Source of the DNA: a virus
Virus record (IMG/VR): IMGVR_UViG_3300035704_000006
Location: 3,456 to 67,455 of that record
Direction: 5' to 3' (one strand)
Length of the DNA: 64,000 bases
Positions 866 through 64,000 of the stretch are shown here, one piece after another (positions within the stretch are counted from its first letter, which is position 1; each line of letters starts with the position of its first letter). A program made the position numbers and the translations under genes. The notes under the pieces are model-generated. The model did not search any database, had not been told where the DNA came from, and worked only from the letters and a program-made list of their open reading frames with translations.

Positions 866-894
866 CACTCAATCCCGGCAAAGGAAAGAGCAAT
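866..894 (+). repeat. 29-bp direct repeat CACTCAATCCCGGCAAAGGAAAGAGCAAT, copy 1 (copy 2 at 2253-2281)
   Basis: Exact match read from sequence. Confidence 0.95.
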
Positions 895-2038
895 GACAGC
901 AGAGCAGTACGATCCTGATCAGTCAGCTAAGGCGCCGGAAGATACCGCCGGCGCCCAGGTACTCAATGAAGCCCAATCGCACATCGGGCGCTTCCTGGTA
1001 TTCCCTCATGACGGATGCCTTCCTGTCGTCACATTGTGGTGCGCGGCTACCTGGATTCATCAGGTATTCCCGTCATTCGGCCGTCTCGCGCTGCTCTCCG
1101 ATGAGCCAGGGTCAGGCAAGACAAAGGTTCAGCAGGTAATGATGCCCCTGTGCTGCCGGCCGGAAGACATCGTGGATCCGACCGGCCCGGTACTCGCGAC
1201 GATGATCGATCAGATGCACCCGACCACGTTCCTTGACGAGACAGACACAATCTGGACCGCCGGCGGTTCTGACAGTTCTAACCGGAAACTGCGGGCCATC
1301 CTGAATAAGGGATACAAGCGAGGGGGAACACTGCCGCGGAAAAACGGGAAGACCTTCACGCGCGAATCTGTCTACGGGCCGGTGTGCTTCGCCGGCCTGG
1401 GCAACCTTCCCCGCACGATCATGACCAGGTCACTGGTTATCAGGATGGAACCGCGCAAGCCAGGCCAGCTAACCGAGACCTACTACGATCGAAGCCATTC
1501 CCCCATGGGGGAAGCTCTGGGCAAAGCTCTCGGAGAATGGACGGCGACCATAGCGGAAGATGCTGAGGGGCACTGGCCGGAGATGCCCGACGGCATTACC
1601 GACCGCAAGCAGGAAATCAGCGAAGCTCTCCTGACGATTGCCGACCTGGCCGGCGGCCACTGGCCAGCCACGGCACGCGCCGCGGTCAGAACCATTCTCC
1701 TCGATCAGTCGGAAGCTTCCGGCCCTACTCCCGCACAGCAGCTCCTCTCCGATGTGCGGGCAGTGTGGCCGCGCAGCATGCCGGCTGTCCACTCCCAGGA
1801 TCTGGCGTCGCTGCTGACCTCTGACCAGACCATGGCATGGGGTTCTCTCTGGTCACCGGACAACGCGCAGAGAGAACTCTCGATGCTCTTGCGCTCCCTT
1901 TCCCCTGCTGTCTCGCCGGTCAAGGTCACGGTAGCGCGCAAGTCCCTGCAGGGTTACCGCCGGTCAGACTTCGCCGTTCACTGGCTGGCCGCCGATCGCC
2001 TCGAAGAGACAGGCACTAACGGAGATGATGACGAGTGA
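893..2038 (+). CDS. DUF3631-family P-loop ATPase (replication-associated)
   Basis: RFLVFP..TLW.AATW, Walker A PGSGKT, LDETD, C-terminal GYRRSDF..W; ATG 893 follows AAAGGAAAG. Confidence 0.75.
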   Translation: MTAEQYDPDQSAKAPEDTAGAQVLNEAQSHIGRFLVFPHDGCLPVVTLWCAATWIHQVFPSFGRLALLSDEPGSGKTKVQQVMMPLCCRPEDIVDPTGPVLATMIDQMHPTTFLDETDTIWTAGGSDSSNRKLRAILNKGYKRGGTLPRKNGKTFTRESVYGPVCFAGLGNLPRTIMTRSLVIRMEPRKPGQLTETYYDRSHSPMGEALGKALGEWTATIAEDAEGHWPEMPDGITDRKQEISEALLTIADLAGGHWPATARAAVRTILLDQSEASGPTPAQQLLSDVRAVWPRSMPAVHSQDLASLLTSDQTMAWGSLWSPDNAQRELSMLLRSLSPAVSPVKVTVARKSLQGYRRSDFAVHWLAADRLEETGTNGDDDE

Positions 2039-2184
2039 CAATCAAGGTATCGGCCGGAGATACGGTAATAGTCCCCGGAGTTATGGGGCCTATTCCGGTC
2101 AAGGTCATGACAGTACATCAAGACGGCACTTTCACAAGTGATCTTAATTCCCGTATCTACCGGATTAGCCAGATTCTCAAATAG
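2035..2184 (+). CDS. Small 49-aa beta-rich protein (MTIKVSAGDTVIVPG...), absent from ORF track
   Basis: GTGA overlap with upstream stop; manual translation to TAG 2182-2184. Confidence 0.5.
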   Translation: MTIKVSAGDTVIVPGVMGPIPVKVMTVHQDGTFTSDLNSRIYRISQILK

Positions 2185-2284
2185 TAACTCGCCGTAGGCC
2201 AGCGCGCGGCGCCCAGGTGAAGGGCGCCGCGCGCTGGCTCATTACGAGCAATCACTCAATCCCGGCAAAGGAAAGAGCAATATC

Positions 2285-2818
2285 ATGACAATCACTCAGT
2301 GCGGAGTTCCGGCAATTCCGCAAGTTCCGGATGCTAGCGCAGTACGCGAGGAGATAGCCGCTTACATGGAATCCTCGCCCGCTCGTGAGGCTGTCACCCG
2401 CGAGTACTACCGGGCGAGAAAATCTGGCTGGTCTCCGGTGGCCGCTATGGAAGCGGCACGCGGTTACATCGCCCTGCGACACGCGGAAATTCAGGGACAC
2501 GTGACGATCGCCTGGGTTACCGATGAAGCCTTCGACCTGGGCAACTTCACGGACATTCCTGAGCTTGAGCGTGAGACGAGAGAAAACCTTGCGGACGGAA
2601 CATGGTCAGCAGATGTCTGCGAGGTCTTCAGGGGCGAGATGGACGGCAATACGGCCTATCCCTTCCGCAACGCCGTACCTGATGCTTCGCTCTGCGGCAT
2701 CGTCACCGGGTGCAGCGCATCAGATGAGACCTACCGCCGGTCAGTCGCCGCAGACCTGGCCGCCGACCTGGGCATCATTGATCTCTCCGACTACTCGCAC
2801 CCTCGGCTCAAGCGGTAA
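2285..2818 (+). CDS. Hypothetical protein
   Basis: 177-aa ORF preceded by conserved start-associated motif/RBS. Confidence 0.65.
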   Translation: MTITQCGVPAIPQVPDASAVREEIAAYMESSPAREAVTREYYRARKSGWSPVAAMEAARGYIALRHAEIQGHVTIAWVTDEAFDLGNFTDIPELERETRENLADGTWSADVCEVFRGEMDGNTAYPFRNAVPDASLCGIVTGCSASDETYRRSVAADLAADLGIIDLSDYSHPRLKR

Positions 2819-3511
2819 CCCGCGCTGGCCAGGTATCCCCTCCCCTGAGGTACCTGGCCAGCCCAGCCCGGCCAGCCCGGTCACCTGGAAGGGATAAGAG
2901 CCGTCCTGTCCGAACTGCCCGATATAGTCCGATATGTCCGTTTACTTCTTAAAAAGCGCCGCGCACCCTGGGATTTTAACCCTCGCGGGAATTAATAGTT
3001 TTAGAACTCCAAGATTATATTAATTTAATTAATTAAGCTCAACAATAAAATGCGTGACTTAGAGGGTTTTCGCCGCTAGATTTCACTGCATCATAATATC
3101 CAGCAGATGCCTGCTGACATAATCGGTTTTCAGCAATATTACATGCCCGCATGATAGTAACGCTATACGGCCATGCCTGAGCACGCCTTAATTAAAAGAT
3201 TATGGCGTATTTGTTCTCCCGCTGCCACGTGCATGCTGTTCGCCTGTAATACTCTGATGCAGGACTATGCATGTGTGATGCTACCATAAGCTAGTAAGCA
3301 TAAATGCTATCTGCCAGCGCTAGTGCAGGTTTTGCACATGAGTTATCTTATTTTTACAGCGCTAGCGCTCCGGAGTCCTTCCAGAGGGATCTCCTGAGAG
3401 CACTGGCACTGTTGCCTTTATGTAAAAGCATGCTTACGCTGATCAGTAAATAGCGCTCCGGAGTCCCTTTCGGAGAAAACCCTCCCCTCGTTTACTTCCG
3501 GGCAGGCGAAA

Positions 3512-3537
3512 GGGGCGGGAGATATCTCCCGCCCCTC
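3512..3537. terminator. GC-rich hairpin downstream of holin gene
   Basis: AGGGGCGGG...CCCGCCCCT inverted repeat; T-run follows on minus strand. Confidence 0.6.
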
Positions 3538-5780: not shown

Positions 5781-5786
5781 TCTTTA

Positions 5787-6215
5787 TCAGGTCTCCTTTG
5801 CCGGGATGCCTTTTACTGTCTCCAGCGGGATTTCGGGCAGTGCAGCCGGCCCGAAGCTCGCCATTGCCGCGCTCATGCCCCCGTAATCGGTGGCGAAATT
5901 AGCGTACACGCTGTACACCAGCGTGATCAGGAGGAGAATCTTGGACGGGGCGAAAAAATAAAGGACCAGAACGACCGGGATATTGACCAGCCAGTACGCC
6001 GATCCCCAGAAATGCACCTTGTACTGGAGCCGGGGATCAGTTTCCAGGCCCTTGACCAGGTGCCTCAGCCAGGCGTACCGCCCCGCTCCGCCTCCGGCGC
6101 CCCCCGTCTTCATCCCCAGGTGCGCCCTCAGCGCCGTGACCTCGTGCCTGAGCGCCCGCATCTCGTGCTCCAGGGCCGATCCCGGTCCCGCGCCTGCTCC
6201 CGCGCCTGCTGCCAT
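5787..6215 (-). CDS. Membrane protein (possible lysis accessory)
   Basis: Two hydrophobic segments, adjacent to lysin. Confidence 0.55.
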   Translation of the reverse strand: MAAGAGAGAGPGSALEHEMRALRHEVTALRAHLGMKTGGAGGGAGRYAWLRHLVKGLETDPRLQYKVHFWGSAYWLVNIPVVLVLYFFAPSKILLLITLVYSVYANFATDYGGMSAAMASFGPAALPEIPLETVKGIPAKET

Positions 6216-6867: not shown

Positions 6868-6871
6868 CGGC

Positions 6872-11588: not shown

Positions 11589-11662
11589 GGAGTGACTTTG
11601 CGGAGGGCACAGCTAGCATGTAGTCTCTTCAACGTGTGATCTCATTCTTTGCCGGGATGAGA

Positions 11663-12335: not shown

Positions 12336-12433
12336 CTTGCTCTCTTTCTTTTGCCGGGATAATCAGCCAGGGGTTTTCCGGGATATCTATTACCGTTCCC
12401 TGTATTGCTTCTTCGAGTCTCCGATCTCGCGGG

Positions 12434-14360: not shown

Positions 14361-14542
14361 CAGTCATCATTTCCTTTGCCGGGATTTACGTAAGAGCGTT
14401 TCTGGTTGTAACCGGTCCAGCCGTTCGGCTGAGGGTGAATCGCGCGGTACCTGCGCATCTCCTTTGCTTTCCAGTCGCGGCATTCCTGGCACCGGCACCT
14501 CTTGTACCAGCCGTACCGGGTTCCGTGAGTGAATTCTCTCAT
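14360..14542 (-). CDS. Small zinc-finger protein
   Basis: HGT..G...CRC..C motif. Confidence 0.55.
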   Translation of the reverse strand: MREFTHGTRYGWYKRCRCQECRDWKAKEMRRYRAIHPQPNGWTGYNQKRSYVNPGKGNDD

Positions 14543-17534: not shown

Positions 17535-17574
17535 TTCCTGTCCTTTGCCGGGATAGCATTAAGTGCTCATATTA

Positions 17575-17899: not shown

Positions 17900-18079
17900 T
17901 CACCACCATTCGTAGTCTCCTCGTCTTGTTCTTTTCCTGCCGCCAGGGGGCTTGTCTATCTCCCTGGCTGCCCGGCGCGCTATGGCAGCGCCTTTCTTGT
18001 CTCCGTTTCTTTCCCTGATCTTTGCCACCTGTCTCCAGGTATCCCGGATATCCCGGCGGCTTACCCAGTTTCTAGCCAT
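17900..18079 (-). CDS. Small basic 59-aa protein (MARNWVSRRDIR...), absent from ORF track
   Basis: Manual translation; fills gap, overlaps DnaE stop. Confidence 0.45.
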   Translation of the reverse strand: MARNWVSRRDIRDTWRQVAKIRERNGDKKGAAIARRAAREIDKPPGGRKRTRRGDYEWW

Positions 18080-20288
18080 CGGCGATTACCCACATGCGGT
18101 CGACGCGGATGGCGGCGCCGAAGCCGCGGACGGCGCGGCCGGTAATCAGGATGCCGTCGCTGCCGGGCACTATTTCCGCGACCTGGCGGGCGAACTTGCG
18201 GTACTGGAACCGGCCGATGCGCAGGTAGACCTCTCCGGCGCCGTCGTCGTAGCACTTGAGGGTGACGCTGCGGGTCAGGTGCGGTGACTTGATCCCGGTC
18301 ATGTCCGGGTTCCCGGCCGCCCTCTCGTCTTCGGCCAGGTCCCTGTACGCCACGTCACGGATCAGCCCGCACCAGGTGACCTTCTTCCTGTCCTCGATCG
18401 CAAGGAGGCTCTGGCTGTCGCAGTCAGGCAGAGGAAGCTTCTGGCTTACGACGATGGCCTTCCGGACGCTGGCAATAAACCGCCCGGCCTTGTGAATCCC
18501 GAAAGGATCGTCGCTGTTCGCGAACTCCTGCATTTTCCGGACGGTTACCTGGCCGACTCCCTTGACCCTCAGCAGGTCACCCCAGCTTTCGAATGGCTGC
18601 CGGTCGTGCTCGTCGCACAGGGCGTGAGACATTACCGAGCCGATGCCGGGAACCTGGATGAACCCGGGAGTGATCACGTCGCCGCGGAGGTGCCAGGTGA
18701 TATGGCCGCAGTCATACCTGGGCTTGCCGATCCGGAACCCGTGCGCCTCGGCGTCCCTGATCAGCAGCGCGACTCGCTCCTTGTCATCAGACGGATGGCA
18801 TTTCTGCAAGCTGGCGGTAAAGAACTCGATCGGGTAATGCTGCTTCAGGTACATGCACCAGAGCGCGAGCTTGGCATAACTGACCGAGTGCGCGGTATTG
18901 AATGCGTAAGCGCTGGCCTTGGACATCGAGTGCCAGATCTTCAGCGCTTCTTCGCGCCGGATCTTGTGAATCTTCTCCGCGCCCTTGGCGAACGGCTCGA
19001 AGAAAGAATTGAACTGAGATTCTCCCAGTTTCTTGGCGACAATCTTCCGGATCTTGTTGGCCTGATCGAAGCTGAGCCCGCCGACCTGCATGGCCACCAG
19101 GATGATCTGCTCCTGGTAGATGATGACGCCTCGGGTGCCTGCTGTGATCTCCTGCATGGGCACGGGCATCTTACGGCGGGATTCCCGGTCATTCGCCACG
19201 TACCTGGGCGCCTCATTCAGGGCACCCGGACGTGACAAAGCTACAATGTCGGCTAGCTCCATGAAAGTACGAGGCTGGACAGCCAGTGAAATTCCCCGGG
19301 TTGCCCGGCCGTCGAACTGGAATATCCCGGTCACGTCATCCGAGCGGAAACCCTCCATTGACTTCTTGTCCGTATCCGGGACCGCATAAAGGTCGGTCAG
19401 CTCGATGCCGGCCAGGTGGCAGGCATGAGCAATCATTCCCATGGTGGTCAGGCCCAGGAAATCAGCCTTCAGCAGGCCCAGGTACTCAGCGTCGTACTTA
19501 TCCAGGCTCAGCACCCGAAGGTTTCTCTTGCGGTCACCCGTGCCGGAGGAGACGCTGTAGAGCGCCGCGCACGCCGTCAGGGGCTGAGTGGAGATAATGA
19601 GCCCGGCCGCGTGGACAGAAGGCGATTTCATCTGGCCTTCGAGGCGGAGAGCGTCAGCCAGGTCAGGGAAACGCTCGAAAGCATCCTGCACCTGGGGGAA
19701 GAGGCCGATGGTGTCTTCCAGCGTATTCCAGCGGCGGTCGTCCCCGTCCCCCCGGTCGACTACCAGGTCAGCAACAGCCTGCGTGATCCCGCGGCCGATC
19801 GAGTGAGCTGATCCGATGGCCTGGAGAGCTGCCCGGCCGCCGAACCGGACATGGTTGGCCACGTTGCCGACGTTTACCTGGCCGTACTTGTTCTCCAGGT
19901 ACACCCTGACCTCGTCGCGCCGTTCATCGTCGAAGTCCAGGTCGATATCGGGAATGTCCGATCGGTTCGGATCGAGAAACCGTTCGAGCATCATGGCCGG
20001 GTATTCAATCGGATCGATCTCAGTGATCCAGAGGACATAGCAGACCAGGGAAGCGGCAGCAGAGCCGCGGGCCGGTCCAACTGCTATTTTCTGGCGCTTG
20101 GCCCAGCGAACTGCATCACTCGTGATCAGGAAGAAATTAGTGAAGCCCTTCTCCCTGATCATTTTCATCTCACGGGCAATGCGCCTGAAATGCTTCTTGC
20201 TGACTGCTCCTCTTTTCTCCATTCCCTGCTGGACCCAGAATTTGAGGAGCCTGTAAGAATCATCTGCCAGGGAATCTATCAGGTCCAT
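18072..20288 (-). CDS. dnaE: DNA polymerase III alpha-like, catalytic part lacking PHP
   Basis: GPARGSAAASLV.Y, ERF, PDIDLDF, HAAG, K.DFLGL, YQEQ, YAFN.AH. Confidence 0.93.
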   Translation of the reverse strand: MDLIDSLADDSYRLLKFWVQQGMEKRGAVSKKHFRRIAREMKMIREKGFTNFFLITSDAVRWAKRQKIAVGPARGSAAASLVCYVLWITEIDPIEYPAMMLERFLDPNRSDIPDIDLDFDDERRDEVRVYLENKYGQVNVGNVANHVRFGGRAALQAIGSAHSIGRGITQAVADLVVDRGDGDDRRWNTLEDTIGLFPQVQDAFERFPDLADALRLEGQMKSPSVHAAGLIISTQPLTACAALYSVSSGTGDRKRNLRVLSLDKYDAEYLGLLKADFLGLTTMGMIAHACHLAGIELTDLYAVPDTDKKSMEGFRSDDVTGIFQFDGRATRGISLAVQPRTFMELADIVALSRPGALNEAPRYVANDRESRRKMPVPMQEITAGTRGVIIYQEQIILVAMQVGGLSFDQANKIRKIVAKKLGESQFNSFFEPFAKGAEKIHKIRREEALKIWHSMSKASAYAFNTAHSVSYAKLALWCMYLKQHYPIEFFTASLQKCHPSDDKERVALLIRDAEAHGFRIGKPRYDCGHITWHLRGDVITPGFIQVPGIGSVMSHALCDEHDRQPFESWGDLLRVKGVGQVTVRKMQEFANSDDPFGIHKAGRFIASVRKAIVVSQKLPLPDCDSQSLLAIEDRKKVTWCGLIRDVAYRDLAEDERAAGNPDMTGIKSPHLTRSVTLKCYDDGAGEVYLRIGRFQYRKFARQVAEIVPGSDGILITGRAVRGFGAAIRVDRMWVIADG

Positions 20289-21214
20289 GGATTCCAGTCC
20301 TCCTCAGTCGCAGGGAATTTCAGGGGAGGAGCTTTCGGCAAGCGCACGTTGCAGCGCTCGGCTAGTTCAAGCGTGTTATCGATTGCCTCCTGTGCAGCAT
20401 CCGGCGACAAGCCTGTCTTGTAGAGAGACATGAACAACTCATCCCTGGTTTCCGGATACGTCAGGCGCACATCGTATTCCCAGGTCTGCTCCTGGCGGTC
20501 AGTAGTTACCCCGCCGCGCCCGGTGGCGTGGAGAAGGACTTGCATGGCGTTGTTATCGGGATACGGGTAATGCACGTCCCGGGTCGCTATGAGCGGGATT
20601 CCAAGTCGCCGAGCCAGAAATTCGTAGCAGGGATTGATTGCGCGGGTCTTGTCCAGATCAGGGAAAGCCTGAACCTCCAGAAAGTACCGATCTCCGAATA
20701 GATCACGGAACTGTCCGGCAGTTTCCTCGGCAGCACGAAGATCAGGCGCGTGATCTTCGCGTCCCTTGCCGCCCACGAGATCGCAAGCGAGCTTACTTCC
20801 AGTGCAGCCGGAGAGCACAGCAATCCCGTCTGAGTGATCCGCGAGCGAGCGCCCGGAAATTGTCGCTTCATAGTAGAAATCCTCTCCCCAGGATTGAGTC
20901 ACCATTTCCATCAGGTTCGAGTAGCCGACCTGATCCATCGCCAGCAAGCCCAGGTGCCAGCGCGGCTTGATCTTGTCCGCAATGAAATCACCGGGCGCCG
21001 TGTATGCTTCGAGCCCGTAAATCGGCTTGATCCCTGCCTTGTCGCACGCCTGCTCCAGCCGGGCGTGCGAGGAGACATTCCCGTGCTCGGTCAGGGCCAG
21101 CGAATTCATGCCAAGCTCAGCGGCTCTCGCCACGTGGGCGTCAGGCATGGCATAGCCGTCAAGGTAAGAGAAAGTGGAATGGGTATGCAGGCTTGCCCAC
21201 CAGCCGTCAGCCAT
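20279..21214 (-). CDS. dnaE: Stand-alone PHP domain of DnaE
   Basis: LHTHS.FS.LDG, TEHG, GLEAY, SGC, DVHY. Confidence 0.92.
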   Translation of the reverse strand: MADGWWASLHTHSTFSYLDGYAMPDAHVARAAELGMNSLALTEHGNVSSHARLEQACDKAGIKPIYGLEAYTAPGDFIADKIKPRWHLGLLAMDQVGYSNLMEMVTQSWGEDFYYEATISGRSLADHSDGIAVLSGCTGSKLACDLVGGKGREDHAPDLRAAEETAGQFRDLFGDRYFLEVQAFPDLDKTRAINPCYEFLARRLGIPLIATRDVHYPYPDNNAMQVLLHATGRGGVTTDRQEQTWEYDVRLTYPETRDELFMSLYKTGLSPDAAQEAIDNTLELAERCNVRLPKAPPLKFPATEEDWNPWT

Positions 21215-21583
21215 TGCTTCTCCCTGAGCTGTCGGGCATCGTTCCCCTTGACCCGTCAGGCCGCAGGAAAGCGGTCTTTCCGCATACGACCGCTGAAATG
21301 AACTTGCACTTGAGGCAGCGGATCCACGGGCATGTCCGCTTATCCGGGCAATGCCTGCGGACAGTCCTCGACTGGCAGCCGAAGCAATGGTCGGGGATCT
21401 TCATCAGTGGCGCGCGAATCTGACCGGGCACGGTGACTGAGGAGGGGTCTTCTCTGCTTCGTAGCTGGCGTCGCACTTGGCTTTGTCACAGGAGATTGTC
21501 CCTTGTATTTCCTTGCCCCACTGGTGGCGCCGGGAGCCTTTGCGATTGCGTCTTTTGCCGGGACGAGTATTGCGGGGCACGTT

Positions 21584-22183
21584 CTAAAATCCTTTCAGCA
21601 ATTCAGCGAATGACTTGATGATGCGAGGGAAATCGGCTCGGGCTTCGGCGTCCCTCAATGCGGCGGAAGGATGCCAGCAGATCATCACGCGGGGAGCGTC
21701 AGGGTGTTCCTCGTCGGTGATTACCTCTCCTGCTTTCCGCGCGATCGGGACTGCCTGGCCGAATATCGCCTTGGCCGCCGTCTTCCCGTACGCCAGGACG
21801 GCGATCGGCTTCCCGGAATCCCTGGTGACAAGGCCAAGCTCGGTCATCAGGTAATTCCGGGAGCACATGATCTCATCGTGATCAGGCGTCCGGTTCTTTC
21901 TCGGCCGGTATTTCACCGCGTTAGTAATCCAAAGAGTCCAGGGATCGATTCCCGCCTCATTCAGGTGACGCCGGAGGAACTGACCGGAAATGCCGACGAA
22001 AGGACTGCCCAGGGCGTCCTCCTGTGCTCCGGGCGCCTCTCCGACTATGACTCCCCGAGGGGGAACATTGCCTGTGCCGTGAACCAGGGAGGGCTTCCGC
22101 ATCCCGTATTCCTTGATGAGATCCTGGAGCGCTGGCTCATTGCCGTAGTTCTCGTAGATCTTCTCAAGCGCTTTCGTGAACAT
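21584..22183 (-). CDS. Uracil-DNA glycosylase family 4-like
   Basis: VGEAPG..ED..G.PFVG.SG, TNAVK.RP..NRTP, HPSA. Confidence 0.88.
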   Translation of the reverse strand: MFTKALEKIYENYGNEPALQDLIKEYGMRKPSLVHGTGNVPPRGVIVGEAPGAQEDALGSPFVGISGQFLRRHLNEAGIDPWTLWITNAVKYRPRKNRTPDHDEIMCSRNYLMTELGLVTRDSGKPIAVLAYGKTAAKAIFGQAVPIARKAGEVITDEEHPDAPRVMICWHPSAALRDAEARADFPRIIKSFAELLKGF

Positions 22184-23276
22184 GCCCGAGCCCCTCCTCT
22201 TTCTCGTGCAGCCTCCGGTGATAAGCGCGGTACACGATCTCGACGGCCTTCGAGATCGTTCCGGGAAGCCGGGTCTGCCCGGCCAGGTGCTCGTGATGAC
22301 GCCTGGTGAAATGCCTGGCGAAAGCCCTGGAGTCCATCTCTTCGGCAGAGATTACCGTGACTATTTCTTCGTCTTCATTTCCTTTTCCGTCCACGATTCC
22401 TCCGGGGAAGCAGATAGCGGTGAGAAGAAGCCGGATCCCGAACGCCATCTGATCCGGGAAAACGCCGTTGCCGATGAGCTTCAGGTGATCAGTCCGGGTA
22501 AGCCCGGGGACATCGGTTACCCATCCGGCGGGCAGCCCCATCATCCATTCCGGAAAGCGAGCGGCCAGCCTGGGCTTTCCTCCCCTGCCTGGCTCAACAG
22601 GAGCCGGGTAATCACCGAATATGGCCGCCCACCGGTCGACAGCAGCCTGGTATTTTCCCCAGCCTTTCCCCTCGATCGTCATTACTCCCGGAAGAATGCC
22701 CGGCATCAGCGGCGTGACGGAGAGATGCTCGACCTGGTCGGCAAGCGTCGGCCCGTGACCGCCCGCGCGGCGCTTGTCCGGTGGCTGGCTGCCTCCGTTG
22801 ATGGCGAGCTGAGCAGTCGGGGTAACCAGGAGATCCTGACGCTTCTCGGTCAGCCTGGCGCCGGGGAGGAGGCCCAGGACGGCTCCGGTGAGCATGGTGT
22901 CGCCGCGGGTGCGGTGCTGGTTCGGTGATCCGTGGCGGGCCTCGCCCGCCACGATGGTAGGCAGGAGATCGGTGATGACCTCGGGCAGGGGCTTATCGGA
23001 ACCGGTGCGGATCCGGCCGTCCGATCTCGGACGGCCGATGGGCTTAGTCGGCCCTTTCCAGTCCCGCCGGGTCGGGGTCGGAAGGCCATGCGAGGATGAC
23101 GACGCGCTCCCTTTTGTGCGGGGCACCCCGGTCGGAAGCTCGTACGCAATCCCACTGCGCGTCATACCCGATGCCGGCCAGGTCCCCGAGTACAGCACCG
23201 AGTGCCCGCACGGTCCTGTCCGGGTCGTTTCCCATGCAGCCTCGGCAGTACTCCAGGCCGCTATCCGCTTTAGCAC
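22164..23276 (-). CDS. C5-cytosine methyltransferase C-terminal polypeptide (motifs IX-X) with in-frame extension
   Basis: TWP.SGMTR.G.AYELPT, LPTP repeats, EWMMGLP.GWVT, LIGNGV. Confidence 0.75.
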   Translation of the reverse strand: MLKRIAAWSTAEAAWETTRTGPCGHSVLYSGTWPASGMTRSGIAYELPTGVPRTKGSASSSSHGLPTPTRRDWKGPTKPIGRPRSDGRIRTGSDKPLPEVITDLLPTIVAGEARHGSPNQHRTRGDTMLTGAVLGLLPGARLTEKRQDLLVTPTAQLAINGGSQPPDKRRAGGHGPTLADQVEHLSVTPLMPGILPGVMTIEGKGWGKYQAAVDRWAAIFGDYPAPVEPGRGGKPRLAARFPEWMMGLPAGWVTDVPGLTRTDHLKLIGNGVFPDQMAFGIRLLLTAICFPGGIVDGKGNEDEEIVTVISAEEMDSRAFARHFTRRHHEHLAGQTRLPGTISKAVEIVYRAYHRRLHEKEEGLGHVHESA

Positions 23277-23625
23277 TGGTCAGCCCTCTGACATTCTCGA
23301 TGACAACTAGGTCGGGACGCAGAACCTTGATGGCCCGGAAGAAGTATCTCCAGACACTGGATTTCTTTCCGGACAGCCCGGTCCTGTCCCCGGCGCAGGA
23401 AACGTTCTGGCAGGAGAACCCGCCGCACAGGATGTCCGGGCGCTCGATGTTTTTCCACCGGACCTGAGAGATATCCCCGAGATTAGGGATGCCGGGGAAA
23501 TGGTGCTCAAGCAGCACGGACGCAGCGGGATCATTGTCCGCGATCCAGATAAGGTCGCCGCCGAAAACCTCCTGGACAGCCATGTCCAGGGCGCCTGTGC
23601 CGGTGCACACGGAGGCAATCGTCAT
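23044..23625 (-). CDS. C5-cytosine methyltransferase N-terminal polypeptide (motifs I-VIII)
   Basis: CTGTGALD, GDI, GGFSCQ, ENV, GAPHKRER. Confidence 0.88.
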   Translation of the reverse strand: MTIASVCTGTGALDMAVQEVFGGDLIWIADNDPAASVLLEHHFPGIPNLGDISQVRWKNIERPDILCGGFSCQNVSCAGDRTGLSGKKSSVWRYFFRAIKVLRPDLVVIENVRGLTSAKADSGLEYCRGCMGNDPDRTVRALGAVLGDLAGIGYDAQWDCVRASDRGAPHKRERVVILAWPSDPDPAGLERAD

Positions 23626-23865
23626 CAGGTCTCTATCCTTTGCCGGGATAAGTGAAAAGGCGGCTCCCTCCCCGCGAGATGGCGGGTTAGCGGGGAGGGA
23701 GCCAGGTGCGGCCGGCGCGGTCCGTCAAAGCGTCGCCTCCGGCCGCCGTGCGGCCAGGGATACGGGCCGGGGAGAGGTTGCAGCGGTGGCATCCGGGCAC
23801 GGGGATGCCCGGCTTGCTGCTGCTCTCTTTCAGGCGCCCCTGCCCGTATCCCCGGGGCTCAGGAG

Positions 23866-24402: not shown

Positions 24403-24444
24403 GTGACCTTTCCTGTTCTTTTCCTTTGCCGGGATTATCTGATG

Positions 24445-26502: not shown

Positions 26503-27147
26503 TTAGTAGGGAGCTGGCTTGCCAGTGCGGCGAGGCTTGGCCGCAGATGCAGCCGGCTTCGCAGCCGGAGCAGGAGAGCCCTTGGCCTTCTTAACCGGAG
26601 GAGCCGCCTGCTCCTCTTCCTCATCTTCGTCGTCGTCCTCGTCGGGCTCATCGAGCACGGCGGCCGACTTGCCGCTGGGAACCTCGGTCTCGTCGTCGTC
26701 CTCGTCGTCGTCGGGCTCATCGTCCGGATCGGGATCGGGATCAGCATCCCGCTCCGGCGCGGAAGCCGGCTGGCGCCTGGTGCGCGGGGCCGGAGCGGGA
26801 GCGGAGGCAGTGGTGCTGTCGGCCTCGTCTTCGCCGGCGTCGGTATCGGCGTCAGTCTCTCCGGATCCCTTCTGCTCCCTAGCCTCCGATCGCGCCCACT
26901 TGGCCTCTTCCTTGGCCTTGGCATCCCTGATCGCGATGTTGATGGCCCTGCGCCTGGCGGAGGCCCGCCTGCGCTCGGGAAGTTCGGAGAACGACTTGCG
27001 CAGAAGGCAAGCGAGGGAGACAGCAGCAATGTCAACCTTCGCCCCCGTCTCCTGCTCGATGAAGGCGTGAAGGTCAACAGCGAACTTCGTGGGTGGCTTC
27101 TTCACCAGATGCACACGAGGAGCATCCGGGTTAATTACGCGGGCCAT
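26503..27147 (-). CDS. Protein with basic N-terminus, long acidic tract and K/A/P-rich tail
   Basis: Composition; motif plus GGAGG RBS. Confidence 0.7.
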   Translation of the reverse strand: MARVINPDAPRVHLVKKPPTKFAVDLHAFIEQETGAKVDIAAVSLACLLRKSFSELPERRRASARRRAINIAIRDAKAKEEAKWARSEAREQKGSGETDADTDAGEDEADSTTASAPAPAPRTRRQPASAPERDADPDPDPDDEPDDDEDDDETEVPSGKSAAVLDEPDEDDDEDEEEEQAAPPVKKAKGSPAPAAKPAASAAKPRRTGKPAPY

Positions 27148-27194
27148 GGCCCTCCTTTGCCGGGATTATTTCAGGGGTAGCTGATCGTAGCATC

Positions 27195-35133: not shown

Positions 35134-35160
35134 CAGTTCCGGTAATTCCGGAAGTTCCGG

Positions 35161-46300: not shown

Positions 46301-47042
46301 AGCTCTCGGCTTCGCCGCCGGTAATCAGGGACAGCGCCCCGTTGCCGCCCCTGCCGACAACCAGCGCGGCACCCTGCTCCAGTTCCAGGAGGGCATCGCG
46401 GACCTGATCCCATTCGGCAGGGAGCCGCTGAAGCGTGTCCTCGTACCCGGCCCAGGAAGCAGCAGCCTCGTCAGCCGCGTCTGCCTGCGCCATCAGGGCC
46501 GCGATCTGGGCGTCAAGGCCCGGGTTGGCCGCGAGGATATCGGCCTGGAGCTGGCGTTCCCGGTCAGTCAGGGGAATGAGCGCATCCCCGGCTGCCGTGG
46601 CGGCTGCGGCAAGGCTGCTGATCGCCGCGCTGGCATCAGCCGCTGAACTGCCCGCCTCTTCCGTGGCGGCAGCGGCCTCGCGGGATGATGCGGTCAGGGT
46701 GTCCGCGGATGAGGCAGCGGCGTCAAGCGCGGCAGTCAGGTCTTCGGCTTCGGTGATCGCCGGCTCGGCGTCCAGGACGGGTTCCAGGGTCAGATCCCGG
46801 GCGTTCAGCTCACTGAGCCTTTCGTCCAGTCCCTCGATCTCCGCTTCGGCCGGCCCGGTGTCAGCCTCGGGGATCAGCTCGATGTCGTCTGTGGCGGCCA
46901 GGAACGCGGTCCTGAACGCCTCCCCGTACTTCTCCCCCAGGGCTTCGGCGCCGGGAAGGATTTCCTCCTCTGCCTTGGCATTCCAGCCTTCGGCATTAGG
47001 GACGACGGAAACGCCGACGCTGCCTACGACGCTGCCGCTCAT
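43386..47042 (-). CDS. Tape measure protein
   Basis: 1218 aa Ala-rich helical, follows chaperones; VGSVGVSVVP start, FAQGG. Confidence 0.9.
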   Translation of the reverse strand: MSGSVVGSVGVSVVPNAEGWNAKAEEEILPGAEALGEKYGEAFRTAFLAATDDIELIPEADTGPAEAEIEGLDERLSELNARDLTLEPVLDAEPAITEAEDLTAALDAAASSADTLTASSREAAAATEEAGSSAADASAAISSLAAAATAAGDALIPLTDRERQLQADILAANPGLDAQIAALMAQADAADEAAASWAGYEDTLQRLPAEWDQVRDALLELEQGAALVVGRGGNGALSLITGGEAESFVADQSKYTGVLKLDEAMVQAAYDANQLQQAENFLGMSLDNADAAAGALRDRLVSLGLSDAEAAAGAIALSNAINTQAAAQERAAVFGQAGPLTGASLLDSAIVKATADSAALARAQEALGITEGTTEERTAAANAKLLEMGFSQDQATAGALAFSGAMDAEAASAEKLAVAMGAAETESKGFSLNKGFVGSMISGILSDPLVIIGALAAGLGFLAYEAVKLTDASGNLKEVTEQENDALVKQDKAVRFNIAGYAEHIQQLQTLRKEDEAIANLPQGEGSFIGPAVKEDNALIEQATLKYANLTSRLQILGHMYGLDSIQSLQLAKASGVSANALQAQGEAGNKAMAKIEAYANKELGAASSTQAFSQQMEIANGLAGSLATRVQALGAAEGDLFNPTLNMINTTNQLDNDMVTLKTDLGLSADSVGTLTAAQRTAGTQMSQTVSDAIANAEAIKQITGSSSQAAAPLVALRNTLDALGVHGGEARKIIAELNTAIDALHNKTVSIDVNVNTTQTGGQAPISGTVSHLFTQSAKGMVIPGYAPGRDTEHVLASKGEAIMVPEWTRAVGEDYIHAANSYYSSGRSGGSSRPRHFAQGGIAGYGANISQMAGGDTFQVFVGLLGSSATDVRSGGSSAADTVAREFEASASRTPAQIRASGKLALEDLEKYYTGPHEKELGKIIGNQTNVLTEMAKVQDKINTTIANMRQASSQEIQSLQNFSGLSSLSFRTNKQGVQEPTGAGIKTALEEKVMQLHKFFEVIGRLHHQGVSKVLIEQAIALGPEDGTAYAEAILSGGGKLIGELNRDERKIGREETAIGQRTADITYGQSITKGWLSSLDHDKEEIKKRMRELGDEIAREMIKALHGRLNIGGGGLSALDKSVALGISTLEGVAGSGTLSRADVNQIEAFLHSIRDSENQHVTRKQGGEIISLLRSNPRATGRATGNAVMAGLDGAARNAASAGRFATATRNT

Positions 47043-47916
47043 TCGTTCTCCCTCGGCCTTCTCCGCTGTCCTTGTCCTGCGGTTCCATCAGGGCGTCCCG
47101 GAGCCCTGCCGTAGGCCGGAGAGCGCGGGTCGATCGCCATCCGGTGCTCCGGCCGGAGTTCCTTCTTCCTGCGCGCCTTCACCGGCTTCTTCCCGTGGCC
47201 CGGGCGCCGGACCGGATCGGGGAGGGGCGGCTTGCCCTTGGTGCTGTTCGCGCGGATGGTGATGTACTGGAGCTTGCGCATCTCGTCGATGAGCGTGGCC
47301 AGCAGCATGTCCGTGTGCGACCAGTGGCCGTCCGCCGGGTCGTACGGCTCGGAGTCGTCATCGTCTCCTTCCCCCTCCTCTCCGGCTGCCAGAGCCGGCG
47401 CCGTAGCTTCCGCCAGCAGGCGCAGTTCGGTCATGGTCTTCGACTCCGGGGGGAGGCCGTCGATGAGCACGCTCAGCTTGCGCAGCGTGAGCCGTGACGG
47501 GCCTCCCCCGGGCCGGTACATGTCGAGGAGGTCCAGGTGGCAGTACCGGTGGAGGTCGAATTCCAGTGCCCGGCGGCGCTCCCTGGCTAGGTGGAGGACC
47601 GCCGCGCTTTTCCCGCCGAGATCCCGTTGGCCTTGGTGATGGCCTCGCTGAGCGCATCGAGCTGGTAATTGTGCAGCTTCGCTTCGATGAATGCCCGCGC
47701 GTCGTCCTCGTTAAGGACTTCGGCCGCCCAGGCATCCCACATGCTTGCCGCGAGGAACCTGCTCCCGTTGTGAGTCCATTCTTTTCCGTGCGGAATGGAG
47801 ATCACCGTTCCGGGCGCGATCTTGACGGGGAGCGGCTCGCCTACCGCTTCGCGCAGGGTTTCGTCCATCGCCACCAGGTCAAGCGCAACTGATAGCGGGG
47901 TCTCGTTTTCGTCCAC
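47039..47916 (-). CDS. Tail assembly chaperones G (47587-47916) and GT via -1 frameshift at GGGAAAA (47608-47614)
   Basis: G GGA AAA heptamer; the -1 frame stays open (KSAAVLHL..EFDL..DMYRPGG) into ORF 47039-47521. Confidence 0.85.
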
Positions 47917-47942
47917 TGGATATTTTCCTTTGCCGGGAATCG

Positions 47943-53138: not shown

Positions 53139-53978
53139 TCACGCTGCCATCTCCTTTTCCGTTCCCGTCCCGGTTCCTGAATTATCTCTCGATCGCCAGT
53201 ACCGGCGCCAGGCGTTAATAGCGTCCTTGCCCTTGTAGCCGCGTGTTACTTCTTTCCACTGGCGGTAAAGCTCGTTGTCGAAAAGGCGCGCGACCTGGTT
53301 CTTGCTGAATGCCGGGGCCACGGTGCACATGCAGTGGTTGTGGGCGTCGAAGTCCGCGCTCTGCTCCGTCTTGTACACGGCTCCCCGGCTGGCCAGCATG
53401 GCGCAGAAGGCGCACGGGCGCGGCCCGAGGACGCGCATCCAGGCAACCGCCTGAGGATCCTCGCTGACAGCCTCCAGGATCGCTCCGCGCCCGCCTCCCA
53501 GGGCGATCCGGGCAGCGGCGCCGGAGAGTGATACCGCGGCGCTGCTCATGGCCGCCTGGACTTGCTGGCCGCCGGAGATCCCCTGGAGCATTGTCCAGGG
53601 ACCAGTCATGTCGAGCACGTCACCGATGAACGGAACTTCCGGAACTTCCGGAACTGAAGGAGCAAACGGAGCGGCAGCTTCCCCGATTTCCCCCGCCGCG
53701 ATAGCGATAGCGCGAGCGCGCTCGTAGTAGTCAGTCCCGCCGAGCGCCGATGAAAGCCACTGCTCCTGGACCATCCCCGAGATGACGCTCCGGACAGCAG
53801 GCCAGCTCGCCCTGATCGCATAGGGGTTCATCTGCTGCCAGAGCGAGATGACATCGCGGATCAGCAGTGCCCCCAGCAATGCCTGTCCCTGCCGCCACGC
53901 CTGCGCCATGATCATCGGCGCGTCTTCGGGAACAGGAAGTCCCTCGGCAATCGCCGGAGGAGCCTGATAGGTCGTCAT
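53139..53978 (-). CDS. Head maturation/MuF-like protein
   Basis: PCAFCAMLASRG.VY, HNHC.C. Confidence 0.8.
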   Translation of the reverse strand: MTTYQAPPAIAEGLPVPEDAPMIMAQAWRQGQALLGALLIRDVISLWQQMNPYAIRASWPAVRSVISGMVQEQWLSSALGGTDYYERARAIAIAAGEIGEAAAPFAPSVPEVPEVPFIGDVLDMTGPWTMLQGISGGQQVQAAMSSAAVSLSGAAARIALGGGRGAILEAVSEDPQAVAWMRVLGPRPCAFCAMLASRGAVYKTEQSADFDAHNHCMCTVAPAFSKNQVARLFDNELYRQWKEVTRGYKGKDAINAWRRYWRSRDNSGTGTGTEKEMAA

Positions 53979-60534: not shown

Positions 60535-60584
60535 GCTCCACCAGCAGTACCTGATCCCGGCAAAGGACAGTAGGTGCACGTGCG

Positions 60585-60806: not shown

Positions 60807-60843
60807 GAAACACTTAATCCCGGCAAAGGATGAAAGAGGCATT

Positions 60844-62612: not shown

Positions 62613-63512
62613 ATGAAGAAAGCACTCATCACAGGTGCCGCTGGGTTCCTCGGACGGCACTTTCACAAGCGTCTCGCCGAAGACGGCTGGGATGTGCACG
62701 GGATCGACCTGAAGCCGAGTGCAGTTAGCTGGCAGACGCACGCGCTCCAGTTCTTCCGGCCTCCGTACTTCTCTGATCACTATGGCCTGGTGCTGCACTG
62801 CGCCGCGGTGGTCGGCGGCCGGGAGGTCACTGACGGCAGCCCGCTCGACCAGGCGGTCAACCTCGAACTCGATGCGGCGATGTTCCAGTGGGCGCTCCGG
62901 ATGAAGCCCAGCCGGGTCGTCTACTTCAGCAGCTCGGCTGTCTACCCGGTCGACTACCAGACCTTCGCCGAGCCGCTGGAATTGTGCGAGGAGATGGGCG
63001 GTCCGGACGTAGGCGGCATTCCGGATGCTCTCTACGGCAGGTCGAAGGTAATGGGAGAGTACCTGGCCACGCTGGCGCAGAATGAAGGCCTTCCGGTTAC
63101 GATCGTCCGGCCGTTCAGCGGCTACGGCGAAGACCAGGACGACTGCTACCCGTTCCCCGCCTTTGTTCGCCGCGCGCGGGCATCAGCCGATCCTTTCATC
63201 GTGTGGGGCGACCCGATGCAGGTCCGCGACTTCATCCACGTGGATGACATCGTGGAGGGCACGCTGGCCATTGCTGAGAGAGGAACCAGCCTGCCGGTGA
63301 ACCTGGGCTGGGGGCGGCCGGTAGAACTGGGCTCGCTGGCCAGGATGATCTGCAAGGAGTCCGGCTACTCACCTGACCAGGTAATCGGAGATGACGGCGC
63401 TCCGATGGGCGTCGAATGGCGTGTCGCGGATGTCGAGCGGATGCTGGACCTCTACAAGCCAAAGGTGACGCTCGAAGAAGGCATCGCCAGGGCGGTAAAA
63501 GCCGCCTGCTAG
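62613..63512 (+). CDS. NAD-dependent epimerase/dehydratase (extended SDR)
   Basis: TGAAGFLG, SSS, YGRSK, RDFIHV.D. Confidence 0.93.
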   Translation: MKKALITGAAGFLGRHFHKRLAEDGWDVHGIDLKPSAVSWQTHALQFFRPPYFSDHYGLVLHCAAVVGGREVTDGSPLDQAVNLELDAAMFQWALRMKPSRVVYFSSSAVYPVDYQTFAEPLELCEEMGGPDVGGIPDALYGRSKVMGEYLATLAQNEGLPVTIVRPFSGYGEDQDDCYPFPAFVRRARASADPFIVWGDPMQVRDFIHVDDIVEGTLAIAERGTSLPVNLGWGRPVELGSLARMICKESGYSPDQVIGDDGAPMGVEWRVADVERMLDLYKPKVTLEEGIARAVKAAC

Positions 63513-63525
63513 CCAGAAGAACAGC

Positions 63526-63570
63526 AAAGAGCCCCGTGCTTTCCGACAATTAGCACGGGGCTCTTTCTTT
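63526..63570. terminator. Bidirectional intrinsic terminator
   Basis: AAAGAGCCCCGTGCT...AGCACGGGGCTCTTTCTTT. Confidence 0.85.
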
Positions 63571-63575
63571 TCCTG

Positions 63576-63818
63576 TCACAGTCGCTTGCGGACCAGAACT
63601 GGCCGGCCGGCCGAGGTGGAATTGGCGCTGAAATGCATTGTCATCAGGTTCGGGGCAGCCAGGGTCAATGATGGCTTGCCCCTGATACGGGGAGTACCGG
63701 GAATTACGTAGTGGTGCGGCACGTACGGCCGGGTAATCGCGTGGACTACAGCCGGCGCAGCGAGCACGAAGGTAAAAGAAAGCGCTGCTGCTATCACCAT
63801 GAGCATTTTCCTGGTCAT
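63576..63818 (-). CDS. Small protein with signal peptide
   Basis: MTRK + hydrophobic stretch + VHA; AAGGAGG RBS. Confidence 0.55.
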   Translation of the reverse strand: MTRKMLMVIAAALSFTFVLAAPAVVHAITRPYVPHHYVIPGTPRIRGKPSLTLAAPNLMTMHFSANSTSAGRPVLVRKRL

Positions 63819-64000
63819 ATCCCCCTCCTTTCTCTGCCGGGACGGGTTTTTCTGCTTCATAGCTTACCGCATGGCGCTGTCTGATGCGGAATTTCCGGAA
63901 CTTGCGGAATTACTATCACCCTGGGGACTCTTTTAAAGGATCCTTTTGTTTTTCCTCTGGATTGGGAGAACTAGAGAAATCGGGGCGGCTGGGAAAGGCT

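Follow-up and report, generated by a model that had tools for sequence, protein, structure and literature searches.

Introduction

Start-associated sequences (SAS) are short motifs that recur before the genes of certain phages, and they are the closest described parallel to the element considered here, a 14-nt motif, ATCCCGGCAAAGGA, that lies just ahead of gene starts in a viral contig. SAS have been known since 2011, yet in papers from 2024 and 2025 the passages that deal with them continue to describe what they do as undefined or untested (PMC11373665, PMC12699233). Our contig is IMG/VR record IMGVR_UViG_3300035704_000006, a linear viral sequence of 67,455 bp that is estimated to be 93% complete. 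We studied its bases 3456–67455, and this whole stretch of 64,000 nt is referred to below as the window. Coordinates without a prefix are those of the window, and those preceded by “contig” follow the numbering of the full 67,455-bp contig.

According to the passages that describe it, the cluster K SAS is a 13-bp asymmetric motif with the consensus GGGATAGGAGCCC that occurs in 11–19 copies, only in the non-structural half of the genome and in one orientation (Pope et al. 2011, PMC3203893). It lies 3–7 bp before start codons, mostly ATG (PMC3203893), or 3–9 nt with the later account included (PMC3203893, PMC11373665), and it contains AGGAG together with conserved bases that are unable to pair with 16S rRNA (PMC3203893). 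The same account describes it as rare in the host, variable between relatives, and of unknown function, with a role in translation favored (PMC3203893). In phage Adephagia, an extended SAS contains SigA-like promoters (PMC11373665). The corresponding passages on Microbacterium phages of cluster EF report ten copies of GGGAAAGGACCCC at the ribosome sites of non-structural genes and a DnaE-like polymerase encoded in two genes (Jacobs-Sera et al. 2020, PMC7302621). Taken together, the SAS of the two clusters number 10–19 copies, and their authors favor a role in translation (PMC3203893, PMC7302621, PMC11373665).

Two further systems provide useful comparisons, one acting on RNA and one on DNA. 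Through RegA translational operators and RegB cleavage, phage T4 uses one phage factor to shut off many early mRNAs at their ribosome-binding regions, and the targets are loosely defined, AU-rich, or a bare GGAG. The stoperators of the cluster A phage L5 are, in the parts of the source that treat them, >20 asymmetric sites of 13–14 bp that are oriented with transcription and lie mostly in short spacers, with gp71 as the repressor (PMC9283540).

Results

A start-linked motif in the non-structural genes

The window contains 11 exact copies of ATCCCGGCAAAGGA (Table 1), and none of 100 dinucleotide-preserving shuffles contained any match. Allowing up to three mismatches raised the count in the window to 29 matches, compared to 8.37 ± 3.11 expected. 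The whole contig contained 12 exact copies and no instance of the reversed motif sequence. An earlier note on this sequence, made from the letters alone, had listed 11 exact copies and a set of variants; we reproduced every exact copy with its coordinate and strand, and the variants proved to be real, with positions that were off by 0–2 nt. The 3.4 kb upstream of the window added strong copies at contig 579, 830, 2377, and 2569, as well as two degenerate copies at contig 409 and 1099.

A weight-matrix scan of the contig yielded 22 strong copies scoring 17.4–25.9 bits, with the next best match at 14.3 bits, although this gap arises partly by construction because the matrix was trained on hand-picked copies. 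The weaker group (≤14.3 bits) held 11 matches vs ~4.5 expected in shuffles, including in-gene matches at 8187, 24955, 50579, and 60732 and three degenerate start-linked copies. In a blind tally of all 24 contig matches with no more than two mismatches, 20 were start-linked, three fell in genes (8187, 24955, and 50579), and one was an orphan (21551).

The orientation of the motif matched that of the downstream open reading frame (ORF) in all 22 strong copies, in agreement with the claim that copies follow local transcription. We counted as a start any ATG or GTG opening an ORF of at least 35 codons, and by this measure 20 of the 22 strong copies ended 5–19 nt (median, 11) before a start, which bears out the statement that nearly all lie within ~20 nt of one. 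The two exceptions were 11645, which precedes only a 15-codon ORF, and 21551, which no start follows over the next 40 nt. Measured from the stop codon of the upstream ORF, the distance to the motif was variable, ranging from −26 to >200 nt (median, 48). Gene calls came from a heuristic based on third-position GC content (GC3) with manual edits, so individual distances may be off.

The copies were also unevenly distributed. Only one strong copy (47926) lay inside the structural block, and the other 21 fell outside it, so the description of the motif as genome-wide did not hold. The motif is a real, strand-polarized, start-linked signal that marks one gene set, and this set is the non-structural one, not the genome at large.

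In an alignment of 23 copies, positions T2 to G7 (TCCCGG) and A9 were invariant, and C8 was kept in 22. Mismatches were found at positions 1, 8, 10, 11, 12, 13, and 14, mostly in the Shine-Dalgarno half of the motif. The flanks of the alignment carried little information, and 6–8 copies shared a common 5′ extension, (A/C)ACACTCA, and a 3′ AAGAG.

The earlier note had taken AAAGGA to double as the Shine-Dalgarno sequence, and this stands for most copies but not for four. Copies 24422, 34549, and 60554 have an intact AAAGGA that lies 17–19 nt from the start, and copy 63830 lies 11 nt from its start with a degenerate 3′ half (AGAGAA). In all four, a second Shine-Dalgarno-like run is found closer to the start, which indicates that the whole unit is retained even at starts where it does not act as the ribosome site. 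In most copies, read by eye, no further Shine-Dalgarno-like run lies between the motif and the start, so the 3′ half must be present in the mRNA as the ribosome site. Untagged genes of the phage have ordinary Shine-Dalgarno runs: GGAGG, AGGAGG, or AGAAAGGAG. Moreover, four copies (5794, 14372, 24422, and 60817) overlap or abut the stop codon of the upstream ORF and, thus, should be transcribed inside a polycistronic RNA.

TABLE 1 Copies of the 14-nt motif in the window and other features with coordinates
Feature	Position	Strand	Start and gene behind it	Remarks
Exact copy	872..885	+	7 nt before ATG 893; 381-aa DUF3631 protein	Downstream of a strong hairpin; bears 5′ extension AACACTCA
Exact copy	2259..2272	+	12 nt before ATG 2285; 177-aa protein without family	2253–2281 equals 866–894 over 29 identical nt
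Exact copy	5794..5807	−	13 nt before ATG 5780; endolysin	Overlaps 3′ end of ORF 5787–6215
One mismatch (AAAGAA)	11645..11658	−	No long ORF start within 40 nt	TTG 12 nt after the copy opens a 15-codon ORF (11585–11632, −) whose TGA overlaps primase GTG 11588 (GTGA), a layout that would be expected for translational coupling
One mismatch (AAAAGA)	12347..12360	−	11 nt before ATG 12335; 106-aa acidic protein	
Exact copy	14372..14385	−	11 nt before ATG 14360; Dda-like helicase	Overlaps end of 60-aa ORF 14360–14542
Exact copy	17541..17554	−	6 nt before ATG 17534; 202-aa protein	N-terminal hydrophobic stretch in the protein
Two mismatches, orphan, GTCCCGGCAAAAGA	21551..21564	−		19 nt past the stop of the uracil-DNA glycosylase (UDG) gene
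Exact copy	23636..23649	−	10 nt before ATG 23625; N-terminal piece of C5 cytosine methylase	Terminator-like hairpin ends 12 nt upstream
Exact copy	24422..24435	−	19 nt before ATG 24402; 178-aa protein without family, acidic tail	Second Shine-Dalgarno-like run GGAAAGG closer to start
Exact copy (AAAGGAG)	27153..27166	−	5 nt before ATG 27147; 214-aa protein	
Exact copy	30122..30135	−	12 nt before ATG 30109; 113-aa protein	
Degenerate tandem partner, ATCCCGGCAAGGA	30140..30153	−		One A missing; 4 nt upstream of copy 30122, 18 nt start to start
One mismatch, CTCCCGGCAAAGGA	34549..34562	−	18 nt before ATG 34530	Heads leftward ORF92/Xis-like/integrase block; ORF92 doubtful as a protein
One mismatch (AAAGAA)	34628..34641	+	10 nt before GTG 34652; 140-aa acidic protein	Divergent from copy 34549 across a spacer beside the integrase block
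One mismatch, TTCCCGGCAAAGGA	47926..47939	−	9 nt before GTG 47916; 109-aa ORF 47587–47916	GC-rich hairpin ends 4 nt upstream
Exact copy	60554..60567	+	17 nt before ATG 60585; 73-aa basic Cys-rich protein	Flanks form a 7-bp stem
Exact copy	60817..60830	+	13 nt before ATG 60844; glycosyltransferase	
Three mismatches, GTCCCGGCAGAGAA	63830..63843	−	11 nt before ATG 63818; 80-aa protein	Signal-peptide-like N-terminus; gene has own Shine-Dalgarno AGGAGGGGG
Structural block	~35.1–59.4 kb	−		Siphovirus-type
DnaE-like polymerase	18072..21214	−		Adjacent ORFs: PHP domain 20279–21214, core 18072–20288
Integrase	32590..33957			Excisionase-like HTH_17 protein alongside
Tail assembly chaperone match	47039..47521			Just downstream of the 109-aa ORF
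C5 methylase, apparently split	22164..23625	−		ORF 23044–23625 matches Pfam DNA_methylase; ORF 22164–23276 matches PHROGs methyltransferase
214-aa ORF	26503..27147			Behind copy 27153; overlaps other-frame ORF 25413–27077 with PD-(D/E)XK nuclease domain, both on the − strand
25-nt array	63886..63910	−		
25-nt array	35136..35160	+		
25-nt array	contig 391..415	+		
Coding look-alike of 25-nt array	53630..53654	−		Encodes a VPE peptide repeat
Non-coding stretch	2930..3460			~550 bp
CGCC(A/G)CGCGGGCTTCAGCC repeat	9173, 10920, 29798, 37194, 42121, 52348			Positions in + strand notation; related copies 59960 and 63159
Half-motif pair in spacer	18041..18057	+		ATCCCGG-AT-ATCCCGGC

Occurrence in other genomes and in a relative

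Matches to the bare 14-mer occur in at least 117 stretches of viral contigs. Among the matches listed, there were 80 single copies in 80 different contigs, and because each of these is single-copy, we read the matches as chance. A 20-nt form that includes the 5′ extension had no match in other viral contigs. A 19-nt form with the 3′ extension had nine single matches, in unrelated phyla, among genomes representing 185,579 prokaryote species (one per species); within that set, none was in an actinobacterium and none was repeated. In metagenome contigs, this form gave 22 single matches, and one of these contigs (L142) held a second match with at most one mismatch, neither copy being near a start. 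A full-text literature search for the 14-mer found no paper. The motif is also unlikely to be a generic ribosome-site context of the host, because the other genes of this phage use canonical Shine-Dalgarno runs.

Searches of IMG/VR with the DnaE-like polymerase, primase, and SNF2 helicase found no related loci, and a search with the large terminase subunit (TerL) found one relative, L159, of 9.4 kb. Its TerL is 76% identical in amino acids, with ~72% nucleotide identity over coding regions, and it spans three of the tagged positions. Before the homologue of the 80-aa gene, the TCCCGGCA core is kept (CTCCCGGCAACGGA) and is followed by the gene's own AGGAGGG, in a surrounding spacer that has diverged. 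The homologue of the 73-aa gene is preceded by GGAGGA with no tag, and that of the glycosyltransferase by a shorter spacer, also with no tag. Judging from these three sites, the tag appears to be conserved in the lineage and to be gained and lost gene by gene, as in cluster K.

The phage and its tagged genes

The structural block encodes a small and a large terminase, portal, protease, scaffold, capsid, connectors, major tail protein, and chaperone (PHROGs, Pfam), and an ORF of 1218 aa without a family match occupies the tape-measure position. A replication and recombination set comprises a D5-type primase, Dda-like helicase, SNF2 helicase, PD-(D/E)XK nuclease, Sak4-like protein, and UDG, along with a C5 methylase and a DnaE-like polymerase that is encoded as separate PHP and core genes. 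Many further ORFs have no family in PHROGs or Pfam. The phage is temperate, with an integrase and an excisionase-like HTH_17 protein beside it. That HTH_17 protein was the sole helix-turn-helix protein recognized, with no repressor family found in PHROGs or Pfam, which agrees with the earlier statement that no CI-like repressor is visible. Likewise, no sigma factor, RNA polymerase, or RNA-binding fold was recognized in any ORF (Pfam, PHROGs), the Rfam 15 covariance models gave no match at gathering thresholds in the whole window, and no tRNA genes were found.

The tagged genes encode the endolysin, Dda-like helicase, a methylase fragment, a DUF3631 protein, a glycosyltransferase, and ~14 proteins without an assigned function. 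The labels that the earlier note had given to the endolysin, helicase, C5-methylase, and glycosyltransferase were supported, but two others were not. The supposed single-stranded DNA-binding protein (SSB) is the 178-aa protein, which has no Pfam or PHROGs match, and the supposed tail chaperone is the 109-aa ORF, which has no significant family match and lies just upstream of the ORF that does match tail assembly chaperones, a position that suggests a tail role. Gene structure raised questions at two tagged loci. The C5 methylase is apparently split over two overlapping frames, and this split could be genuine or could come from a frameshift or an error in sequencing. The overlap between the 214-aa ORF and the nuclease ORF is an acidic-repeat coding run in which gene boundaries are ambiguous.

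The closest matches of the phage were all distant. TerL was 49% identical in amino acids to that of Corynebacterium phage Juicebox, the maximum to any cultured phage, the capsid matched Mycobacterium phage Muddy at 44%, and the DnaE-like polymerase reached at most 41% to Mycobacterium, Microbacterium, Gordonia, and Streptomyces phages. The best matches of all three proteins were in actinobacteriophages, with an overall range of 38–49%. When 20 kb of the sequence was compared with 50,697 phage records by megablast, nothing matched. We infer that the contig belongs to an actinobacteriophage with only distant cultured relatives and, hence, an actinobacterial host. The phage DNA was present in three soil-metagenome runs, one of which may be its source; in the other two it occurred as short identical pieces only, with no variation to analyze.

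Comparison with start-associated sequences and stoperators

Measured against the published descriptions summarized above, the present motif shares most features of the cluster K and EF SAS, so the analogy that the earlier note drew with cluster K was apt (PMC3203893). Its copy number is comparable (12 exact and 22 strong copies in 67.5 kb), and it has the same ribosome-site position, Shine-Dalgarno core, single orientation, and non-structural bias, in a carrier that is an actinobacteriophage going by its best protein matches. It also shows conservation beyond the bases that would pair with an actinobacterial 16S rRNA tail.

There are also differences from the same descriptions. The sequence is unrelated to that of cluster K, with nothing in common beyond GGA, and only AAAGGA is common to the EF consensus, in which the flanking conserved bases are GGG and CCC rather than ATCCCGGC. 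The extra conserved bases lie wholly 5′ of the Shine-Dalgarno sequence here instead of flanking it as GGG...CCC, and the distance to the start is longer and wider than in cluster K (5–19 vs 3–9 nt). The extended SAS, with 17-bp imperfect inverted repeats or a SigA-like promoter at about half of the copies, has no counterpart: our copies have no shared inverted repeat upstream, only the (A/C)ACACTCA of 6–8 copies, three of which have a −35-like hexamer.

The Microbacterium phage TinyMiny (record positions 25000–57042) is among the best polymerase matches and presumably belongs to cluster EF, although its record gives only the genus Krampusvirus. It carries a variant, GGGAAGGAACCC, 7–8 times. 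One deletion separates this variant from the published EF consensus, and the consensus itself had only one match, with two mismatches, in the TinyMiny stretch. Seven copies of the variant precede a total of six gene starts, of which one has a tandem pair, and four of the six tagged starts have a −10-like CATACT, GATACT, or CATAGT 13–24 nt upstream. The two phages share a syntenic, distantly homologous replication module (helicase, exonuclease, RecA/Sak4-like protein, and a split DnaE-like polymerase at 39.5% amino acid identity) as well as the AAAGGA core and a tandem motif pair before one gene. However, the −10-like hexamer lies 13–24 nt upstream in TinyMiny, and here, where present, it abuts the motif. 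Overall, we regard the motif as an SAS of its own architecture, with a 5′-only extension that appears to be kept as a unit. This phage adds an instance of a described but unexplained phenomenon, not a new kind of system.

Some features are also shared with L5 stoperators. Both sets consist of many asymmetric sites oriented with transcription (22 of 22 here) in a temperate actinobacteriophage, as far as the cited account of L5 goes. In the first 50 kb of L5, we located 17 sites with at most one mismatch, 16 of them outside coding sequence, and for these 16 the preceding stop was a median of 6 nt away, while the following start lay at −12 to 198 nt. L5 sites are, therefore, anchored to stops and occur in both genome arms, whereas the present motif is anchored to starts, with one of 22 strong copies in the structural block, and carries a Shine-Dalgarno sequence. 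A tblastn search of L5 gp71 against the whole contig gave a best E value of 0.053, in a structural gene. The stoperator analogy of the earlier note, thus, failed on both anchoring and gp71, and we reject membership in the stoperator family because of the opposite anchoring and the missing gp71 relative. At most, the motif works “like” a stoperator, and a non-homologous repressor may be encoded by the phage.

Flank complementarity, half-sites, and other repeats

The two flanks of a given copy tend towards complementarity. The mean folding energy of cognate flanks was −3.37 kcal/mol vs −2.60 kcal/mol for swapped flanks, with 86 of 5000 permutations as low; among sets with shuffled downstream flanks, 3 of 1000 were as low as the cognate set, and when only copies lacking the CTCA flank were compared, this held for 177 of 5000 permutations. 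The pattern of complementarity is CTC..TCC-N7-GGA..GAG, with divergent pairs such as GTA/TAC at 34549 and the stem at 60554. This is a lead with modest support, and it cannot tell RNA from DNA.

The 5′ half of the motif also occurs on its own. The ATCCCGGC octamer was found 29 times vs 5.55 expected, and 14 of these lie outside the motif, in genes and in both orientations. We considered these scattered half-sites as a DNA palindrome and rejected the idea, as they lie in genes, point in both directions, and one is not conserved in L159. An antisense RNA carrying the motif complement was likewise rejected: at up to three mismatches, no spacer contains an antisense copy. A complement was seen in one spacer only, as an 8-mer beside a 7-mer in the 180-nt gap after the polymerase gene (Table 1). 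A minus-strand RNA of this site would hold the complement of the motif 5′ half twice, which is roughly what chance would give with 14 stray 8-mers in the window. A link to methylation or restriction through CCGG or CCSGG was dropped, as CCGG is not avoided (1003 observed vs 812 expected). Separately, CTGCAG occurred once in the whole contig vs 16 expected under a maximal-order Markov model, and the other 4- and 6-mers tested were near expectation; this scarcity hints at a PstI-type restriction system in the host.

Several other sequence features stood out. A second repeat family consists of 25-nt arrays of TTCCGGAA-type units (ATTCCGCAAGTTCCGGAA(A/G)TTCCGC), which lie in spacers near both contig ends and in the convergent spacer after the 140-aa gene. 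L159 has TTCCG-rich runs of a similar kind, and the array may be an operator or a recombinase-binding array. The non-coding stretch at 2930–3460 lies between convergent gene blocks, is AT-rich by eye and flanked by GC-rich hairpins, and contains all four sigma-70-like promoter matches of the first 18 kb; possible roles include those of an origin, a packaging site, or a locus for a non-coding RNA. Finally, a repeat of ~20 nt, CGCC(A/G)CGCGGGCTTCAGCC, is present in 5–6 copies with the same absolute orientation, inside minus-strand genes, and could reflect either a peptide motif that recurs or a DNA signal specific to one strand.

Discussion

Our preferred reading, which we hold tentatively and with slightly less confidence than would be needed to call it probable, is that the motif is a tagged ribosome-binding site recognized at the mRNA level by a trans-acting factor. 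The invariant 5′ extension, (A)TCCCGGC(A), would be fused to a weak Shine-Dalgarno sequence, AAAGGA. The AAAGGA half would recruit the 30S subunit, and the TCCCGGC half would be read by the factor, which would probably be an RNA-binding protein encoded by the phage, with a component of the ribosome as the less likely option. Such a factor would switch translation of the whole early/replication-type gene set on or off together. We favor RNA over DNA because the distance to the start is fixed at a working value, AAAGGA is needed at most copies, and some copies overlap the ends of upstream ORFs. A site that is read as a whole would also fit with copies 24422, 34549, and 60554, which keep the full unit 17–19 nt from their starts. 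The precedent of the cluster K and EF SAS, the invariant bases beyond those for ribosome pairing, the core kept in L159, and the complementary flanks count in its favor as well. Action on RNA, a factor that reads the tag, and the direction of its effect are what we infer beyond the copy number, orientation, start anchoring, non-structural bias, invariant bases, and core retention in one relative that were observed. The proposed working model resembles that of T4 RegA and RegB, and no relative of RegA or RegB was recognized in the phage with PHROGs or Pfam.

A number of observations weigh against this reading. No RNA-binding domain that would mark a reader was recognized in any ORF (Pfam, PHROGs). 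Copy 21551 precedes no gene, and copy 11645 precedes only the 15-codon ORF. In L159, two of the three homologues lack the motif and have an ordinary Shine-Dalgarno sequence or none, so the tag appears to be dispensable for the expression of those two genes. Three to seven copies have a −10-like CACACT, CATACT, or AACACT that ends 2 nt before the motif, and three of these (contig 1099, contig 2569, and 34628) also have a TTG-type −35-like hexamer 17–18 nt upstream. With the −10-like hexamer at 2 nt, transcription would begin inside ATCCCGGC, and the 5′ half could be read as DNA only. The flanking stems are weak (mean, −3.4 kcal/mol), and antisense folds are no worse (−4.7 vs −3.5). No RNA run is listed as carrying the phage sequence. 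Pairing of AAAGGA with the 16S rRNA tail is itself a premise, which presupposes an actinobacterial 3′ end.

A more specific form of the preferred reading, which we consider possible but rather doubtful, is that the 14-mer is the operator of a phage RNA-binding regulator of a kind new to actinobacteriophages, which would read TCCCGGCA beside the Shine-Dalgarno sequence and control translation of ~20 early and replication genes as one post-transcriptional regulon. Candidate regulators include the tag-bearing small basic Cys-rich proteins, of 48 aa (contig 2399–2545) and 73 aa (60585–60806), followed by unassigned early ORFs.

Among the alternatives, the one that survives best is a DNA operator or roadblock similar to the cluster A stoperators, although we still think it unlikely. 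An asymmetric DNA-binding protein, possibly an immunity repressor, would bind the 14-bp site, blocking initiation at promoter-proximal copies and elongation inside operons in an orientation-dependent manner, and would thereby silence early/replication genes in the lysogen. The genome offers some encouragement for this idea: the phage carries an integrase and an excisionase-like HTH_17 protein with no repressor recognized, the most invariant bases lie outside the Shine-Dalgarno half, three intact copies sit 17–19 nt from the start, and one copy is an orphan. Copies 34549 and 34628 face each other across a divergent spacer beside the integrase block, and predicted sigma-70-like promoters abut three copies, which would put the transcription start within the site. 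The asymmetric sites, >20 in number, all oriented with transcription and mostly in short spacers, also recall L5 as described in the parts of the source on its sites (PMC9283540). However, the positional logic is the reverse of that in L5, as the distance to the start is fixed and that to the stop is free, and a roadblock has no need for a Shine-Dalgarno sequence at a working distance from the start. Only one of 22 copies lies in the structural operon, compared to sites in both arms of L5, no relative of gp71 was found (tblastn best E, 0.053), and the separate 25-nt TTCCGGAA-type array is an alternative operator candidate.

It is also conceivable, but improbable, that the motif is a compact phage promoter core, made up of a discriminator and an initially transcribed region behind a −10 of the (A/C)ACACT type. 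Short-leader transcripts, one per tagged gene, would then start inside the motif and carry AAAGGA near the 5′ end. A hexamer with A2 and T6 ends exactly 2 nt before the motif in 6 of 23 copies vs ~0.9 expected, but these six share the extended consensus and may be duplicates rather than independent cases. The three copies with a TTG-type −35-like hexamer at 17–18 nt are 34628, behind TTGGCA-18-CATACT (2 nt), which was independently detected by a promoter tool as a predicted sigma-70-like promoter, and contig 2569 and contig 1099, behind TTGCAT-17-CACACT and TTGCAA-17-CACATT (both 2 nt, found by script). Another predicted sigma-70-like promoter, TTGCCA-17-TATCGT, ends 11 nt before copy 34549. 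Still, most copies have no −10 or −35 match, and promoter-like matches overall were at chance (4 vs 3.2 and 3 vs 3.7 expected). Copies 872, 2259, and 23636 follow terminator-like hairpins at 12–29 nt, which leaves too little room for a separate promoter, and the extended SAS of Adephagia holds SigA-like promoters in the passage that describes it (PMC11373665). By contrast with what is seen here, real promoters conserve the −10 and vary the discriminator, and no phage RNA polymerase or sigma factor was recognized.

Hairpins bear on a further alternative. Six copies (872, 2259, 11645, 23636, 30122, and 47926) lie 4–30 nt downstream of strong GC-rich hairpins, mostly without U tracts, and since this leaves no room for a separate promoter, it points to read-through, to processing, or to initiation within the tag. 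The motif could then be a signal for RNA processing or decay, at or next to which a host or phage endoribonuclease cuts, either releasing monocistronic mRNAs with a hairpin-protected upstream partner or inactivating early messages at the ribosome site, as RegB does in T4. An element on the sense strand at ribosome sites is compatible with this, and restriction to one gene class would fit a timed shut-off. We nonetheless give the proposal little weight: 16 of 22 copies have no such hairpin, no nuclease candidate was recognized other than DNA-type nucleases, and no RNA run is listed that would supply RNA ends.

Another possibility is that there is no dedicated reader at all and that the motif is a ribosome-site cassette whose copies arose through duplication, gene conversion, or recombination where genes meet and have simply had no time to diverge. 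Two copies share 29 identical nt and several share 19–25 nt, there is a tandem half-copy at 30140, and the motif comes and goes, being absent from two of three positions in L159. Yet most flanks are unrelated while 8–14 nt are invariant, mismatches avoid TCCCGG in all 23 copies, and the core is kept at the homologous L159 site (~72% nucleotide identity) while the spacer diverged. The strong non-structural bias is also hard to explain by drift, so we find this account implausible. An ops-like pause signal, which the earlier note had proposed, finds no support, as ops elements occur about once per operon leader and this motif precedes single genes.

This phage provides an independent and clean example of an SAS with a different architecture, and it shows that tags of this kind also exist outside the cultured clusters K and EF. 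Because three intact copies are too distant from their starts to work as ribosome sites, and given the contrast with L5, the choice between an RNA and a DNA reader is testable. If a reader were found, it would add a new level at which actinobacteriophages time the expression of their genes, and it could provide a portable translational switch. Should the motif prove to be the operator of an RNA-binding regulator, then together with the SAS of clusters K and EF it would point to a widespread phage strategy, in which a private tag addresses a class of genes to the ribosome.

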